Shown: positions 46,337 through 55,762 of the stretch, in pieces
Layout of the letters: every line of letters begins with the position of its first letter
Numbering within the stretch: position 1 is the first letter of the stretch
Source of the DNA: a phage
Sequence record: NC_111505.1
Direction: 5' to 3' (one strand)
DNA length: 64,000 nt
Made by a program: the position numbers and the translations under genes
Notes under the pieces: generated by a model
Told to the model about the DNA's origin: nothing
Seen by the model: the letters and a program-made list of their open reading frames with translations, nothing else
Databases searched by the model: none

Positions 46337-46411
46337 TGGTGGCCCTGGGTGGAATTGAACCACCGTCTGGCGATTATGAGTCGCTTGCTTGAACCTTCCA
46401 GCTACAGGGCC
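46337..46411 (-). tRNA. tRNA-Met (anticodon CAU; initiator, elongator or Ile-lysidine not distinguished)
   Basis: Hand-folded cloverleaf: acceptor GGCCCTG/CAGGGCC, anticodon loop CTCATAA, T-arm GGTGG/TTCAATT/CCACC, CCA encoded. Confidence 0.7.
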
Positions 46412-46412
46412 A

Positions 46413-46488
46413 TGGTGCTGATGGCAGGACTTGAACCTGCAACCTATTGATTACAAATCAATTGCACTGCCAATTGTGCTACATCAGC
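46413..46488 (-). tRNA. tRNA-Thr (anticodon UGU)
   Basis: Acceptor GCTGATG/CATCAGC, D-stem GCAC/GTGC, anticodon stem ATTGA/TCAAT with loop TTTGTAA, T-arm GCAGG/TTCAAGT/CCTGC, CCA encoded. Confidence 0.75.
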
Positions 46489-46492
46489 AAAA

Positions 46493-46591
46493 GGTGCTAG
46501 GTGATGGAATCGAACCATCTATGTATTCAACGACTACCTCGTCTATTTTCAGGATTAAAAATCCTCGCCCTTGCCAAAGGGCTTACCTAGC
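46493..46591 (-). tRNA. atypical tRNA-like element (~97 nt), anticodon ambiguous (possibly UUU)
   Basis: Good acceptor (GCTAGGT/ACCTAGC), D-arm (GCCC/GGGC) and T-arm (GATGG/TTCGATT/CCATC), but anticodon arm is a near-palindrome (AGGATTTTTAATCCT) and about 30 nt lie between anticodon arm and T-arm. Confidence 0.4.
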
Positions 46592-46689
46592 GCAATATGT
46601 TGACCATGTGGCTAGTCGGCGATGACGACTGTAACATTTGATAATCCGGTTCTGCTTCCGGCTTTCGCTTAATTACAAGGTCAACAATG

Positions 46690-46780
46690 TGGCGGAGAGT
46701 AATGGAATCGAACCATCATCGAGTCATCCTCAACGGGACGGTTTTCAAGACCGCTTGAGCACCATTGCTCCCTACCCTCC
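46690..46780 (-). tRNA. tRNA-Ser (anticodon UGA), long variable arm
   Basis: Acceptor GGAGGGT/ACTCTCC, anticodon stem GCGGT/ACCGT with loop CTTGAAA, T-loop TTCGATT, CCA encoded; 91 nt. Confidence 0.65.
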
Positions 46781-46894
46781 TTTATAAATTACACTGATAA
46801 TGACACTGATTTTCGAGCAGTTAGTGACTAGTATAAACGACGATAAACATCAATGCCATTATCTGTATGATTTATGCATTTAAAAATATAAATT

Positions 46895-46981
46895 TGGTGG
46901 GGAGTGGTGGAGTCGAACCACCCGAGTCGCAATGACAATAGATTTACAGTCTACACCGCTACCTCTACGGGATAACTCCCC
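46895..46981 (-). tRNA. tRNA-Tyr (anticodon GUA), long variable arm
   Basis: Acceptor GGGGAGT/ACTCCCC, anticodon loop CTGTAAA, T-arm GGTGG/TTCGACT/CCACC, CCA encoded; 87 nt. Confidence 0.7.
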
Positions 46982-46985
46982 AATT

Positions 46986-47060
46986 TGGCACCCCGTACTG
47001 GACTCGAACCAGTGTCAACGGCTTAGAAGGCCGCTGCTTTATCCACTAAGCTAACAGGGC
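46986..47060 (-). tRNA. tRNA-Arg (anticodon UCU)
   Basis: Acceptor GCCCTGT/ACGGGGT (two G-U), D-stem GCTT/AAGC, anticodon stem GCGGC/GCCGT with loop CTTCTAA, T-arm ACTGG/TTCGAGT/CCAGT, CCA encoded. Confidence 0.7.
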
Positions 47061-47156: not shown

Positions 47157-47495
47157 TTAACTATTGCCAACAGGCTGTATCTCTGTGGTAAATGGCATAA
47201 AAGGTGCTGGTTTTTCAGCCTCTTCTACTACCACCTCTTCCTCTTCACCAAACATCTCATCATATTCTTCCTGCATTCGGTCTGCCTTATCAAGGACATA
47301 CTCTGCAATGCTTTGACGAATATTTTGCTTGGTTTTCGGATCCAACATCAGCTCTCTTAAAACTTTGTGAGCTTCTGGAACCATCGCTATAAAAGATTCC
47401 TTCATATCAAGAATGTTCTTCTCTAGCTGAATGGCGTTGGACTCCTCTTTCAGAGGTCTGCCTCTACGGCGACGCTTTTTAGTTGTATCCGCCAT
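47157..47495 (-). CDS. hypothetical small basic/acidic protein with AT-hook-like motif (112 aa)
   Basis: Start ATG 47493-47495 preceded by GGAGGA; N-terminal KKRRRRGRP then acidic C-terminus; the ORF-track 5' extension lies in GC-rich non-coding sequence. Confidence 0.45.
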   Translation of the reverse strand: MADTTKKRRRRGRPLKEESNAIQLEKNILDMKESFIAMVPEAHKVLRELMLDPKTKQNIRQSIAEYVLDKADRMQEEYDEMFGEEEEVVVEEAEKPAPFMPFTTEIQPVGNS

Positions 47496-47499
47496 GTTT

Positions 47500-47780
47500 C
47501 CTCCATTATCACGTGATAGGTGGATTTTATCACGGCAAATACTGATTGTCAAGTTCGCCGCAGGGTGGTATTCCCTGCGACTTGCCCAGCGTCCTAGACC
47601 AGCAAGACCCAACAAGTGGGTTACCAGAGACCCATTACCGCGCTTTGGCTCGACCTTATTACAGGTTGGCTGGGGTCACATCGTCATGTGCTGGCTGCCC
47701 CTACCATTTTAAGTGTGGTGCACTATCAAGCCCTCTAAGGGGAACTCAGCCTTCTCCGAACCCTGTTTCAAAGCATCCGG
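47500..47780 (-). ncRNA. GC-rich structured non-coding region (candidate leader or small RNA)
   Basis: Locally GC-rich relative to flanks; perfect 7-bp hairpin CGCAGGG/CCCTGCG at 47569-47589; the only ORFs here are plus-strand ORFs in the six-frame track (47431-47712, 47546-47860) that do not look coding. Confidence 0.3.
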
Positions 47781-47840
47781 AGATAAAGCCATCAAACTCA
47801 TCTTTAAATTGGATATTCATCATGATACACGAAAACAACC

Positions 47841-48083
47841 TCATTGTAAAGCACAAATAAATAAAACATACTTAATTTGTTTGTTATCGGGCTCAGGGTA
47901 GAAGTAGAAGATCTTGCTATCACCAATCTGAACACCACCATCCCAACAACATAAACCATAACCCGTATTCATACAAGCTAAGTCGTTGGCAAAATCTATT
48001 GCATCATCTAGTGCACGAAATTCACCTTCATCTTCTAAATAATCCTCATTCATGGAACGGAAAACGAGCTTAACCTTAAACAT
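47841..48083 (-). CDS. hypothetical protein (80 aa)
   Basis: ORF track. Confidence 0.3.
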   Translation of the reverse strand: MFKVKLVFRSMNEDYLEDEGEFRALDDAIDFANDLACMNTGYGLCCWDGGVQIGDSKIFYFYPEPDNKQIKYVLFICALQ

Positions 48084-48159
48084 AGCATTACCTGTAGACC
48101 TCGTAAGTTAAAATTGTATCACATCATATTGCAGATCTTATCAGGTAACATTATTTTTG

Positions 48160-48348
48160 TCAACAGATTCCGGCCTTATCCCTCCTGTCTGCGTATTCTT
48201 TAATCGCAACCTCACCTGCATTGGTAACCAGATCTTCAAAGTAATTCTCAAGCTCCTCGTCAATGTCCGGTGACCAGCTCTTTTTCCTGTCAGTGTGAAT
48301 TGCAGACCTGTTGAACTTATTACAGTTCTTTGCTACCGGATTGTTCAT
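48160..48348 (-). CDS. hypothetical protein (62 aa)
   Basis: ORF track. Confidence 0.25.
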   Translation of the reverse strand: MNNPVAKNCNKFNRSAIHTDRKKSWSPDIDEELENYFEDLVTNAGEVAIKEYADRRDKAGIC

Positions 48349-48358
48349 TAAGCTCTCC

Positions 48359-48937
48359 TCAACGTTCGTAGTAAATCTTATTCAACATTACCTCATCGTT
48401 TGCAGAAAGGATATCAAGATATGCATCACCAAATCTGCCTGCAACAACCTCTGCATGATACATCACTTCGTCAACATCGTCAAGAGTGATAACCGGATGA
48501 CCATATCTTTCTGAATATTGCCTCAGGGTGCGATGTAACGAGTCGTCATCATATGCAGACTTTTTAATATCACAAACACGACGAATGGCCTTGATGTCGA
48601 AAAAACCTGTGCGATACCACCCAAGAAAAAAGTTCCGTGTGGTGTCAACATCTACATCAATACCATCAAGAACCTTATCTACAAGATAGCTGTCATCCTT
48701 TGGACCAGCGTCCTTAGTGCGAATGTAGTTGCCATCTTTTCCAGGCGATAGCTCCTTCTCATCACCAACCTGCATGCCATCATTTGGCGGTGTTAGCCAC
48801 TTATCCGGATGCTTACGATCACGAGCGTTAGAATGATTACGCTGGAAACCTGGCTTCCACTTGAAAGTTTTCTCCATCTGTTCTTCATTCTGATAACGTT
48901 TTGCAATCTTTTCGCGGTCATCTTTGCGTGAACTCAT
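48359..48937 (-). CDS. hypothetical protein (192 aa)
   Basis: ORF track; first gene downstream of the long regulatory intergenic region. Confidence 0.35.
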   Translation of the reverse strand: MSSRKDDREKIAKRYQNEEQMEKTFKWKPGFQRNHSNARDRKHPDKWLTPPNDGMQVGDEKELSPGKDGNYIRTKDAGPKDDSYLVDKVLDGIDVDVDTTRNFFLGWYRTGFFDIKAIRRVCDIKKSAYDDDSLHRTLRQYSERYGHPVITLDDVDEVMYHAEVVAGRFGDAYLDILSANDEVMLNKIYYER

Positions 48938-49039
48938 AACTGCCTCCTCTTCAAGTTATAGAAAAACTCACTGTATCGCTTTGTAACGAGCTTTTCTATC
49001 AAACTGGTGCGATTGCCTTACTTGGTATAGTTTACGCAG

Positions 49040-49310
49040 CTGTGTGGCGATTTAGGGGCCTTCCTGTCCGTTTCCACACATAAACTTTAACCAAACTCGC
49101 GCGGGAGGCTCTCAACCGACTCCTTACGGCGCTGGCAAGCTTTCGTCGGTGGCCCACATTAGTGCTCGGCATTTGGCCTGCGCTATCGCTTCGCTCCCAC
49201 ACATGTTAACAGTCCTGCATGTATGCACTCCTGTTATTGTGTGCACTATGGAGGCCCGGCATCTCGCCCCTCGTAGGCGAGTGCCAATGAGGGGCCGACA
49301 CTACCAATAG
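49040..49310 (-). ncRNA. GC-rich structured non-coding region (candidate leader or small RNA)
   Basis: No ORF of 60 aa or more on either strand across 48938-49598; nested hairpins (CTCGCC/GGCGAG, CCCCTC/GAGGGG at 49263-49295); GC-rich island in AT-rich surroundings. Confidence 0.3.
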
Positions 49311-49440
49311 TAAGTAATAAATTTAAAACATGGTACTTAGGATCTAGTATATTCTACATAAGTTAAGTATATGTACTTTAGTACCATAAGTACTAGATCT
49401 TTTATTTTTTATTATTTAGTTATTTTAGTTATATTCTTTA
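49310..49440. promoter_or_regulatory. AT-rich segment with nested inverted repeats (candidate promoter/origin region)
   Basis: Inverted repeats such as GATCTAGTA / TACTAGATC and GGTACT / AGTACC within very AT-rich DNA between the GC-rich island and the repeat array. Confidence 0.35.
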
Positions 49441-49441
49441 T

Positions 49442-49525
49442 GTGTCCGTATCACGGACAGTTAGTGTCCGTATTACGGGCAGATGTGTCCGCGTGACGGA
49501 CAGTAGTGTCCGTATCACGGACAGT
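49442..49525. repeat. four tandem copies of a 19-bp palindromic site (operator/iteron-like)
   Basis: GTGTCCGTATCACGGACAG (49442-49460), GTGTCCGTATTACGGGCAG (49464-49482), GTGTCCGCGTGACGGACAG (49486-49504), GTGTCCGTATCACGGACAG (49507-49525); 21-22 bp period; each an inverted repeat. Confidence 0.7.
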
Positions 49526-49598
49526 TACTACCCTCTGCTCTGGGATGGACATAAAACATACGAATCCTTATAGTACAGATATTTAAGTTTTTACTGGT

Positions 49599-49949
49599 CT
49601 AACCAGTTGTTGACATTCGAATAACCTCTTCTGGTGGCAAAACTTTGGAAAATGTGCACCTTTTACCTCTCCCTTGTGTGGATATTTCAACCACTCCTGC
49701 ACATTCTAAAGTTTTAACGCACGCTGCTGCTTTTGTTTTCTTTATCCCAACATCTGCTGCAATTTTCCTTGTGCTGGGTGTGAAGCGTGAACTTCCTCCA
49801 AGCTTATACCAGTTGTGCAGGTAGCAGTATACGATCTTGTCATACAAGTCAAGAATAACAACCTCCCCAGTTGTGTCATTCAAAACTTTTGACATAGACA
49901 GTATTTCAAGGGGGACTTTAAGATATAGCAGCTTATCCCCATCTTTCAT
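49599..49949 (-). CDS. putative DNA-binding protein with helix-turn-helix (116 aa)
   Basis: Segment TRKIAADVGIKKTKAAACVKTLECAGVV resembles a winged-helix recognition region; adjacent to the repeat array. Confidence 0.35.
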   Translation of the reverse strand: MKDGDKLLYLKVPLEILSMSKVLNDTTGEVVILDLYDKIVYCYLHNWYKLGGSSRFTPSTRKIAADVGIKKTKAAACVKTLECAGVVEISTQGRGKRCTFSKVLPPEEVIRMSTTG

Positions 49950-54479: not shown

Positions 54480-55762
54480 TGCATCAGATCAAAACAACAC
54501 TGTACGCACTGAACAAAGATGGCAGCTACCAACAGTGGAAAGTATTCACGGATGGTGATAAGGTTATCGTAGAGTTTGGCAAGCTTGATGGTAAACTGCA
54601 ATACAAAGAGACGATCTGCACACCTAAGAACGTTGGTCGTGCCAATGAAACTACAGCTGAGCAACAGGCTGAGCTGGAAGCGATCAGTAAGTGGGAAAAA
54701 CAAGTCCGTCTTGGGTATGTTGAAAATATGGAAGATTGCGAGCAGGGTGTTGACCTTTTACCCATGCTGGTGCATGACTACCTGAAGCGTGGAAAGGCAC
54801 TTAAATTACCTTGCTGGATCTTGCGTAAGTTAGATGGCCTTCGTCTACTTGTTGTTTTCCAAAATGGTGAGCCTAAATTTATTTCCCGTGGTAATAAGTC
54901 CTACCCTATTCAAGGAAAGCTTCTGGAGCAACTTCGTTCTTTCCACTTCACCACCGGTATTAAACAGCTCGACGGAGAGATCTATATTCATGGCCTGCCT
55001 CTGCAGAAAATAGTGTCTCTTGCTAAACGGTGGCGCACACAGGAAGAGATTCAGGCCGAGATCGATAAAGACTACGAGGCAGATAAAAAACGCCGTCATG
55101 CCGCAATTAAGGCAGGCTTATCAACATACAAAAACTTCAACAAGGTAGATATTCCTGTTGATGTTGAGCCTGTTCGTGATGATTTGCGTTACGGTGGGTA
55201 CTGTAGCTACGATCTAGAGTATCACATTTTTGATATTCCTAGTGACAAGGTGTGGTGGGATCCAGAAACAGAATCTGGACGCTGCAAGGATCTTATGGAT
55301 GTAGAAGATACCATTACCACTCTGATGCTTGACCATATCAAGGTTGTTGACGCAGAGCTTGCGTACACAGTTGATCATTGCGAAGAATCTGTCGGTGTAT
55401 TCATGTCCGAAGGGTATGAAGGTACTATCATGCGTAACTTCTGTGGTAAATACGAATACGGTCAGCGAACATCTGAAGCATTGAAATGGAAAAAGTTCAA
55501 CGATGCTGAGGTGAAAGTTATTGACGTTGAGAAAGATAAGAATGATGAAGGTGTTCTTATCTGTGTTGACAAGGAAGGTATTGTTGTTAAAATGAAGATG
55601 AAAGGTACGCACGAGGAGCGTAGCTATGACAGGATGCAGGAAATGATCGGCAAGTTTGTCACCTTCAAATATCAAGCAAGGACAGAAGACAACAACTACC
55701 AATTCCCTGTCGGTATCTGCGTCCGAAATGTTAACCCAGACACTTGGGAGGTGCTGGAATAA
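54479..55762 (+). CDS. ATP-dependent DNA ligase (427 aa)
   Basis: Motif I ILRKLDGLR (KxDG), motif III GEIYIHG, motif IV EGYEGTIMR, motif V LKWKKF; C-terminal OB-like region. Confidence 0.65.
   Translation: MHQIKTTLYALNKDGSYQQWKVFTDGDKVIVEFGKLDGKLQYKETICTPKNVGRANETTAEQQAELEAISKWEKQVRLGYVENMEDCEQGVDLLPMLVHDYLKRGKALKLPCWILRKLDGLRLLVVFQNGEPKFISRGNKSYPIQGKLLEQLRSFHFTTGIKQLDGEIYIHGLPLQKIVSLAKRWRTQEEIQAEIDKDYEADKKRRHAAIKAGLSTYKNFNKVDIPVDVEPVRDDLRYGGYCSYDLEYHIFDIPSDKVWWDPETESGRCKDLMDVEDTITTLMLDHIKVVDAELAYTVDHCEESVGVFMSEGYEGTIMRNFCGKYEYGQRTSEALKWKKFNDAEVKVIDVEKDKNDEGVLICVDKEGIVVKMKMKGTHEERSYDRMQEMIGKFVTFKYQARTEDNNYQFPVGICVRNVNPDTWEVLE

Follow-up and report, generated by a model that had tools for sequence, protein, structure and literature searches.

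What, if anything, is encoded in the gap at positions 47496-47840 of the phage record NC_111505.1? The stretch of DNA analysed here (the window) comprises 64,000 nucleotides (nt) of this record and belongs to a Vequintavirus (an rV5/FV3-like E. coli myophage). A first, sequence-only reading had described the gap as a GC-rich, hairpin-rich, non-coding island between minus-strand genes, loosely resembling a second island at 49040-49310. Composition and setting proved to be as described: the GC content is 0.52-0.535 over 47500-47799 versus 0.35-0.43 on both flanks, and the gap is bounded by two coding sequences (CDS) of the minus strand, 47157-47495 and 47841-48083. Public records either leave it blank or call small 'hypothetical proteins' there. 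The results presented below support a genuine structured, non-coding island (hereafter island A) and show that it contains a conserved and covarying RNA module, a three-way junction at 47631-47670 (minus strand), which lies on the sense strand, is restricted to phages and is more constrained than the proteins encoded next to it.

A short core of the gap is common to T4 and many other phages

A sensitive search with the gap sequence returned 975 phage records, only 118 of which were vequintaviruses, and in these the whole gap was covered. The remaining records matched query bases 135-178 only (window 47630-47673), with ~88-97% identity. T-even phages accounted for ~850 of the records matching this core (at 88-97%), including T4 (MT984581 64839-64882), T2 and RB phages, with hosts belonging to Escherichia, Shigella, Yersinia, Salmonella, Klebsiella and Citrobacter; Ivi, a 45-kb phage, was also among the matches. 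A covariance model of the core (R1) was built after pattern scans of IMG/VR and metagenomes, and its 94 instances, 79 of them distinct, scored between 30 and 75 bits. The carriers comprised two diverged groups of vequintavirus-like phages, coliphages of ~150 kb (DE16, phiWec188/190 and SF1-1, plus matching 46-kb contigs), the Klebsiella phages Pylas and KpCHEMY26, the Pseudomonas syringae phages KIL1-5, Ivi-like phages, a 360-kb jumbo-phage contig and several metagenomic groups.

Searches of 185,579 bacterial and archaeal species genomes gave 119 pattern matches, all of them GC-rich chance matches devoid of P2, one of the helices of the module described below. Host mimicry was rejected, since a search for the core in 5,426 complete E. 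coli genomes gave nothing with E values as high as 10. Among plasmids there was one match only, CP057073, a 137.6-kb E. coli 'plasmid' which by its sequence is a vequintavirus genome; the same holds for eighteen 'Campylobacter phage' records (MG0656xx), and all these entries are probably mislabelled or contaminants. Another 23 gut-metagenome contigs fitted the loose pattern, with the match lying antisense within a radical-SAM (HemN/HemW-like) gene, and were discarded as false positives. The module thus appears to be confined to phages, mostly virulent ones.

Within its carriers, the core remains near-invariant while the neighbouring proteins diverge, identity dropping to 37% for Vs.8 of the T-even phages and to 66-72% for the flanking proteins of vequintaviruses. 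This stronger conservation, together with the absence from cells, suggests an interaction that the phages cannot afford to lose. The near-invariant module is thus present both in T4, the best-studied phage, and in phages of E. coli, Klebsiella, Shigella and Pseudomonas that are candidates for therapy. It matches no Rfam family, and none of the records inspected carried an RNA annotation for it, which suggests that conserved non-coding genes still go unnoticed even in model phages.

The core folds into a three-way junction supported by covariation

Read on the minus strand, the junction consists, in this order, of the 5' strand of helix P1, helix P2 (ACCU-GUAAUA-AGGU), the bases C-G-A, helix P3 (GC-CAAAGC-GC), the bases GGUAA and the 3' strand of P1 (UGGG). 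R1 matched the window at 47625-47677 with 69.8 bits (E = 5e-21), the sole strong match; a second, weak one, at 55304-55355 (minus strand, 18.8 bits), falls antisense within a plus-strand open reading frame (ORF) of 427 amino acids (aa) and was judged to have arisen by chance. The gene-sense consensus of the family is P1 - A-CCU[GUAAnA]AGG-U - C-R-A - G-C[4-6 nt]G-C - GGUAA - P1'.

Loop and junction bases are almost invariant while the helices covary. P2 was paired in 100% of alignment cells, with one full compensatory swap, the Pseudomonas KIL phages having CCA/UGG in place of CCU/AGG. The second pair of P3 was C-G in 63 sequences, U-A in 8, G-C in 3 and A-U in 1, and the P1 pair stacked on P2 was paired in all 79, as AU (48), UA (9), UG (8), CG (7) or GC (7). 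Further P1 pairs also covary within lineages: CGCU/AGCG, CGAU/AUCG and CACU/AGUG were found in a single metagenomic group, and CUGG/CCAG and CGCG/CGCG in others. The covariation score of the whole structure was 0.235 as compared to 0.091 in shuffled alignments, none of the 500 shuffles being as high. Although A6, the alignment used, had been fitted to the model and was therefore biased towards the structure, an ungapped MAFFT alignment (A4) gave the same picture. Across 25 lineages, the folding energies did not reveal a conserved extra hairpin 5' of P1 (mean z -0.35, p = 0.18). Pairing of GGCUUGA, from an invariant block of the island (see below), with UCGAGCC of the core was also considered and rejected: it conflicts with the covarying P3, breaks in the relative L170 and has no T-even counterpart.

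The U.G pairs would become C.A mismatches if the element were read on the opposite strand, and the module is always found on the gene-sense strand. These pairs and the constant orientation relative to the flanking genes indicate that the structure belongs to the transcribed-sense strand, that is, to an RNA. The same observations bear on the possibility of a DNA-level site (a protein-binding, recombination, homing or origin element) instead of an RNA, for which the very high identity across unrelated phages could be read as a sign of horizontal spread, and HNH endonuclease genes do lie near some copies (L035, L046). Nevertheless, the compensatory and G.U-containing pair changes are strand-specific, the orientation always follows local transcription, the element is not palindromic and no mapped origin coincides with the copy in T4, whose oriC has been placed near rI.-1 and not at denV/vs.8 (PMC3016281). 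We consider a DNA site very improbable.

The junction lies within a larger multi-hairpin island

The anatomy of island A was established by reading the minus strand 5' to 3' and comparing it with the diverged relatives L170 and L041/L171-173. Promoter calls are matches of a consensus scan, not mapped starts. The features of the island and of its immediate surroundings, in the direction of reading, are:

47841-48083, minus strand: upstream CDS, 80 aa, phrog_5676
47822-47850, minus strand: promoter-like site TTTACA-17-TATCAT, 10/12 consensus match, at the end of the upstream gene
47754-47782, minus strand: 5' hairpin CUCCGGA...UUCGGAG, a predicted fold of the window type only
47700-47742, minus strand: invariant block CCCCUUAGAGGGCUUGAUAGUGCACCACACUUAAAAUGGUAGG, with hairpin CCC-UUAGA-GGG followed by the single-stranded stretch CUUGAUAGUGCACCACACU
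47677-47690, minus strand: hairpin CACAU-GACG-AUGUG, directly 5' of the junction
47631-47670, minus strand: conserved RNA three-way junction (R1 match, T-even identity, covariation)
47607-47621, minus strand: hairpin ACCCA-CUUGU-UGGGU, 3' of the junction
47581-47606, minus strand: second GACG-loop hairpin (CUUGCUG GUCUAG-GACG-CUGGGC AAG), covarying stem
47557-47581, minus strand: 9-bp hairpin GUCGCAGGG-AAUACCA-CCCUGCGGC, which ends the structured RNA on its 3' side and contains the stem noticed earlier
47524-47552, minus strand: sigma-70 promoter TTGACA-17-(TG)TAAAAT, 11/12, extended -10, for the 112-aa gene and the tRNA cluster
47496-47523, minus strand: 5' untranslated region (UTR) of the 112-aa gene, Shine-Dalgarno GGAGG at 47500-47504
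47157-47495, minus strand: downstream CDS, 112 aa, phrog_3330
46337-47060, minus strand: six clustered tRNA genes, ~570 nt beyond the junction

The site at 47822-47850 possibly starts the transcript of the island. L041 and L171-173 are devoid of the hairpin at 47754-47782 and present instead a promoter, TTGACA-17-TATACT (11/12, extended -10), just upstream of the invariant block. The block itself, which holds a 9-mer singled out in the sequence-only reading, is ~100% identical between the window and the L041 type, the differences being one pyrimidine and one single-base indel, while the proteins flanking the island are only 66-72% identical in the same comparison.

Several of the hairpins are backed by compensatory changes. 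In L041 and L171-173 the hairpin at 47677-47690 is replaced by CUACG-GACG-CGUAG, where 4 of the 5 pairs change on both sides and the loop is kept. The one at 47607-47621 becomes UCCCA-CUUGA-UGGGA in L170, its outer pair passing from A-U to U-A, and CCC-AUAGA-GGG occupies its place in the L041 type. The stem at 47581-47606 is GUCUAG/CUGGGC in the window, GUCCAG/CUGGAC in L001 and GCUCAG/CUGAGC in L170. The perfect 7-bp stem that had been noticed earlier (CGCAGGG/CCCTGCG) does exist, but at 47559-47565/47573-47579, ten bases below the 47569-47589 assigned to it. It is part of the 9-bp stem at 47557-47581, which has no U tail and includes one U.G, a pair that fits a minus-sense RNA only; this stem is kept in L170 with a change in the loop and is missing from the L041 type. 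The description of the gap as hairpin-rich is hence borne out by comparative evidence, which is strong for several hairpins, but not by the folding energy of the gap as a whole, which is ordinary.

The promoter and 5' UTR of the following gene take up the final 57 bases of the gap, as shown by the 47524-47552 promoter followed by GGAGG and the ATG at 47495. This promoter is kept in L041 as TTGACA-17-TAAACT, and the start codon and Shine-Dalgarno sequence of the 112-aa gene align in all relatives. Within this 5' UTR, just downstream of the promoter, there is a perfect 12-bp palindrome, TATCACGTGATA (~47507-47518), which has TATCACG in common with repeats found at 49440-49530 and is not kept in L041-type relatives. 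Excluding this final segment, island A would correspond to a multi-hairpin RNA of ~220 nt, running roughly from 47790 to 47555 on the minus strand, and only its junction extends beyond the vequintaviruses.

All genes from ~44 kb to 50.6 kb lie on the minus strand, and 47100-49600 matches FV3, EPFV3 and many relatives with 96-99% identity. Pfam and PHROG searches assigned no function to the 112-aa and 80-aa proteins, both found in vequintaviruses only. The tRNA cluster includes a 99-nt 'tRNA-???' gene at 46493-46591 (minus strand) with a four-base anticodon, atcc, according to ARAGORN, which scored 37.5 bits with the Rfam tRNA model; this tRNA-like gene is kept in the relative L170 and annotated as 'tRNA-OTHER' in phage isim.

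The conserved bases are non-coding in vequintaviruses and in T4

Could the gap be coding after all, either as an N-terminal extension of the 112-aa gene or through the small ORFs annotated in it? An ORF starting from a TTG at 47615 (47157-47615) is indeed present, some GenBank records annotate small ORFs within the gap, and in T4 the homologous bases are annotated as codons of Vs.8. However, the TTG extension would contain the conserved promoter at 47524-47552, and the conserved Shine-Dalgarno sequence leads to the ATG at 47495, so that the gap is not the 5' coding part of a downstream gene which has its own sigma-70 promoter, ribosome-binding sequence and start codon. These three signals are kept in relatives whose proteins are only ~70% identical, the PHROG profile spans the 112-aa form from end to end, and the small ORFs are not conserved in L041-type relatives. 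Furthermore, substitutions follow base pairs and not codons, variable positions falling at second codon positions. A coding role for the gap is thus barely credible.

The annotation of T4 was examined in the same light. The core bases of T4 are annotated as codons 4-18 of 'Vs.8', but in phages IME08, phiA85 and 04086 the core is intergenic, 60-90 nt upstream of the vs.8 start, and the PHROG profile of Vs.8, which has 177 positions, takes in no more of the T4 protein than its C-terminal 178 residues. The frame running through the core is closed in the window (from UGA to MGLW-stop). A degraded vs.8 gene was also sought there, and tblastn with Vs.8 gave only the 18 codons that overlie the RNA core. 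Since there are intergenic copies, the profile stops short of these codons and the frame of the window is closed with no Vs.8 homologue, the piece common to T4 and the window must be non-coding. It therefore appears that the 216-aa T4 'Vs.8' (MT984581.1 64242-64892; L003 1904-2554) starts 38 codons early: a Vs.8 of ~178 aa agrees both with the family profile and with the remaining T-even phages, and the extra codons overlie the RNA module. Both the start of T4 Vs.8 and the 'hypothetical proteins' placed in the vequintavirus gap appear to be wrong.

Genomic neighbourhood of the module

A same-strand tRNA gene was found less than 1 kb before or after the module in ~9-10 of 22 lineages (binomial tail 1.5e-4, assuming a generous background of 10%). 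The nearest tRNA ends lie 40-800 nt from the module, or are absent. No neighbouring protein common to the lineages was found, and Vs.8 is a neighbour in T-even loci only. Intrinsic terminators follow the module at 18 nt in L042 and at 50 nt in L199. In Ivi, terminator-like hairpins flank the module on both sides according to folding, although the terminator scan did not list them, and the next gene has its own promoter directly after the RNA. Three T-even loci, L020 (5091-5141), L045 (9131-9181) and L308 (473-523), contain a second and more diverged copy ~110 nt after the first, both copies being located between denV and vs.8. Three contigs of 46-70 kb (L011, L027 and L039) repeat the unit (A/G)GUGCYNUUUCCGUUGUGRYGAAA ahead of every small RNA or tRNA module. 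This unit, whose GUUGUGAC is able to pair with GUCACAAC located beyond the junction, may be a phage-specific promoter or processing signal.

This diversity of contexts bears on whether the module is a cis-acting leader, that is, a riboswitch-like aptamer for a ligand or protein that would control either read-through or translation of the genes coming next, which are vs.8 in T-even phages and tRNA or late genes in other carriers. Its constant position in every T-even locus, 75-90 nt ahead of the true start of vs.8, the tandem copies in L020, L045 and L308, the leader-like architecture of a variable closing helix round an invariant core, and the terminators after the module in L042 and L199, with a gene start coming next in L042, would all suit such a role. 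Nonetheless, outside the T-even phages there is no consistent downstream gene, the module is separated from the following gene by a strong promoter (in the window, L041 and Ivi), and several lineages place the module after tRNA genes or at the end of the unit. No alternative P1/terminator pairing is evident, and no known riboswitch class matches. We regard a leader function as unlikely, albeit one of the two main alternatives to the reading favoured below, with the T-even arrangement and the tandem copies as its best support.

Comparison with known RNAs

At gathering thresholds, the 4227 covariance models of Rfam 15 detected only tRNAs in the window, no match overlapped island A when the search over 47300-49600 was relaxed to E values up to 10, and ten relatives from five lineages likewise gave no match. 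A tRNA or tRNA-like structure was discarded, as ARAGORN and RF00005 detected the six neighbouring tRNAs and nothing in 47496-47840; unlike a cloverleaf, the module has two hairpins, both very short, with 5 nt of junction ahead of the closing strand.

A closer precedent is found in the theta ribozymes, minimal HDV-like RNAs that abut phage tRNA 3' ends, within 5 nt, and fold into the HDV double pseudoknot, in which J4/2 begins with a catalytic C (PMC10879173). Like them, the module is a compact and highly conserved RNA present in many unrelated phages, frequently beside tRNA genes. An HDV-like fold was nonetheless ruled out, given that a P1 strand of 6-7 bp cannot fit where all 79 distinct sequences have only C-R-A between the hairpins; in addition, the last junction of the module opens with an invariant G (GGUAA) in place of the catalytic C, and the distance to tRNA ends is 40-800 nt. 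Purine-type riboswitches and the hammerhead are likewise three-helix junctions in which the closing helix varies while the bases of the junction and loops do not. The hammerhead was excluded because the junction strands are zero nt, C-R-A and GGUAA, there is no CUGANGA/GAAA core and no Rfam hammerhead model matched. As regards small-junction aptamers, the tandem copies and the 5'-UTR position in T-even phages constitute a likeness, but the module is much smaller than these aptamers and ribozymes (P2 of 4 bp, P3 of 2-4 bp) and shows no loop-loop complementarity, and it differs from riboswitches in having no fixed downstream gene outside the T-even phages.

A self-cleaving or otherwise catalytic RNA of a new class, which would cut polycistronic early or stable-RNA transcripts, has to be weighed by analogy with these systems. 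The small size, the near-invariant junction bases within variable helices, the scattering over unrelated phages with no fixed gene partner, the frequent vicinity of tRNA genes and the occasional tandem arrangement are what such an RNA might display, and ribozymes beside phage tRNAs provide the precedent (PMC10879173). The defining HDV-like features fail, however, with 3 nt at the place of the P1 strand and G, not C, at the first position equivalent to J4/2; the CUGANGA/GAAA core of the hammerhead is missing, tRNA ends are never within 5 nt and no Rfam ribozyme family matched. We rate a catalytic role as improbable.

Two further likenesses concern RNAs and signals of coliphages. Species 1 and 2 of T4 (rnaC and rnaD) are small genes of the stable-RNA type, also on the same strand as adjoining tRNA genes, but R1 found nothing in the T4 tRNA/rnaC/rnaD region and there is no similarity in sequence or model; the T4 copy of the module lies ~6 kb away, upstream of vs.8, and the module is common to many phage families. 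The boxB (nut) hairpin of lambda is GCCCU-GAAAA-AGGGC, and P2 (CCU-GUGAAA/GUAAAA-AGG) resembles it, with a loop one base longer, a resemblance that is only a lead; a difference from lambda nut is that no boxA-like element appeared on reading the module sequences. To our knowledge, the phages bearing the module are virulent and have no known N-like systems. Literature queries on the sequence string and on T4 or vequintavirus non-coding RNAs, which were limited and in several cases poorly aimed, retrieved no description of it. Of the known kinds, the module comes closest to the small stable or structured RNAs located beside phage tRNA genes, but it is a distinct family with a far wider range.

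Possible function of the module

We tentatively favour, at somewhat less than an even chance, a discrete and stable small RNA of the phage that would act in trans, its invariant unpaired bases serving as a recognition surface for a conserved host factor. This preference is based on the lack of a fixed downstream gene, on the promoter or terminator that some lineages provide for the module alone, on the promoter that stands between it and the following gene (in the window, L041 and Ivi) and on its vicinity to tRNA genes. Island A would then be the gene for a structured non-coding RNA of ~220 nt whose functional heart is the ~40-nt junction at 47631-47670. The RNA would be made early from host-type promoters, within or beside a stable-RNA (tRNA) transcription unit, and would persist as a discrete small RNA. 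The GUAAnA loop, C-R-A and GGUAA might be recognised by a factor common to gammaproteobacterial hosts, candidates being a defence nuclease, for which the RNA would be a decoy, or a component (protein or RNA) of the machinery that carries out translation or handles tRNAs. The surrounding, lineage-specific hairpins would only scaffold and stabilise this recognition core, and the RNA would not regulate the adjacent gene.

Several observations weigh against such a stable, trans-acting RNA. About half of the lineages have no nearby tRNA. In T-even phages the module is always in the 5' UTR of vs.8, sometimes in tandem, a location more typical of a cis-regulatory leader. As for the window itself, the folding energy of the whole gap is unexceptional (z = -1.17 on the minus strand and -1.11 on the plus strand), the terminator scan found no intrinsic terminator after the RNA, and the promoter-like site before it matches the consensus in 10/12 positions only. 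The closing helix of the junction is also modest: beyond its first pair P1 is short (2-5 bp), with 67% of cells paired overall, these positions being paired in ~1/3 to 2/3 of the sequences and the two outer ones in only ~1/3 to 1/2.

A bolder proposal would be that the module represents a new functional class of RNA in T4 and many other virulent phages of gammaproteobacteria (a new self-cleaving ribozyme, a new ligand sensor or an anti-defence decoy), overlooked for decades because of the over-long Vs.8; judged on sequence comparisons, we find it possible but rather doubtful. A decoy of this kind could counter tRNA-directed or other RNA-directed defences of the host. The copy present in T4, a phage with full genetics, makes the module directly testable, and the R1 covariance model is now available for its annotation.

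Island B is a separate element

According to the sequence-only reading, island A and the island at 49040-49310 (island B) might be two diverged copies of one element, a similarity that it also considered weak and perhaps due to chance. This caveat was well placed. Both islands are GC-rich, conserved and non-coding, on the same transcribed strand, and the 9-mer GTGCACTAT is found exactly at 47718-47726 and 49241-49249, with no third site in the window; yet two regions this long would have some exact 9-mer in common by chance with a probability of ~0.29 in one orientation and 0.49 in either. The looser CACAT...GTGCT.GGC likeness can be read in both islands but does not raise their alignment above chance: the best local score, with both orientations considered, was 19, compared with 17.9 +/- 2.2 for shuffled sequences, 155 of 500 of which scored as high. 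A structure-aware comparison agreed, the core model giving 69.8 bits in island A and nothing in island B with filters off and E values up to 10, so that the islands share neither a significant alignment nor a covariance model. Moreover, the 9-mer belongs to the invariant block of island A but to the least conserved stretch of island B, where it is altered in phage isim and L291. The GCCGKAAGG of island B varies where the GGUAA of island A is invariant, and its likeness to GCGGUAAUGG is superficial only. The phylogenetic ranges also differ, homology searches having placed the core of island A in many phage families and island B in Vequintavirus only. A common origin of the two islands as copies of one element is consequently scarcely tenable.

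No counterpart of island B was found in L041-type contigs. Alignment columns 118-230 of this island (49030-49320, minus sense) show hardly any change even in a relative with an overall identity of 85%, and it looks like a separate conserved non-coding element, possibly with a long-range covarying helix (GGGAG/CUCCC versus GGAAG/CUUCC). Next to it, at 49310-49530, four palindromic repeats of ~21 bp (TGTCCGTATCACGGACA and variants) adjoin an AT-rich stretch (GC 0.31), and the 116-aa gene beside them (49599-49949) is described as a transcriptional regulator or replication initiator in public records; from its layout, this repeat arrangement looks like an operator or an iteron/origin.

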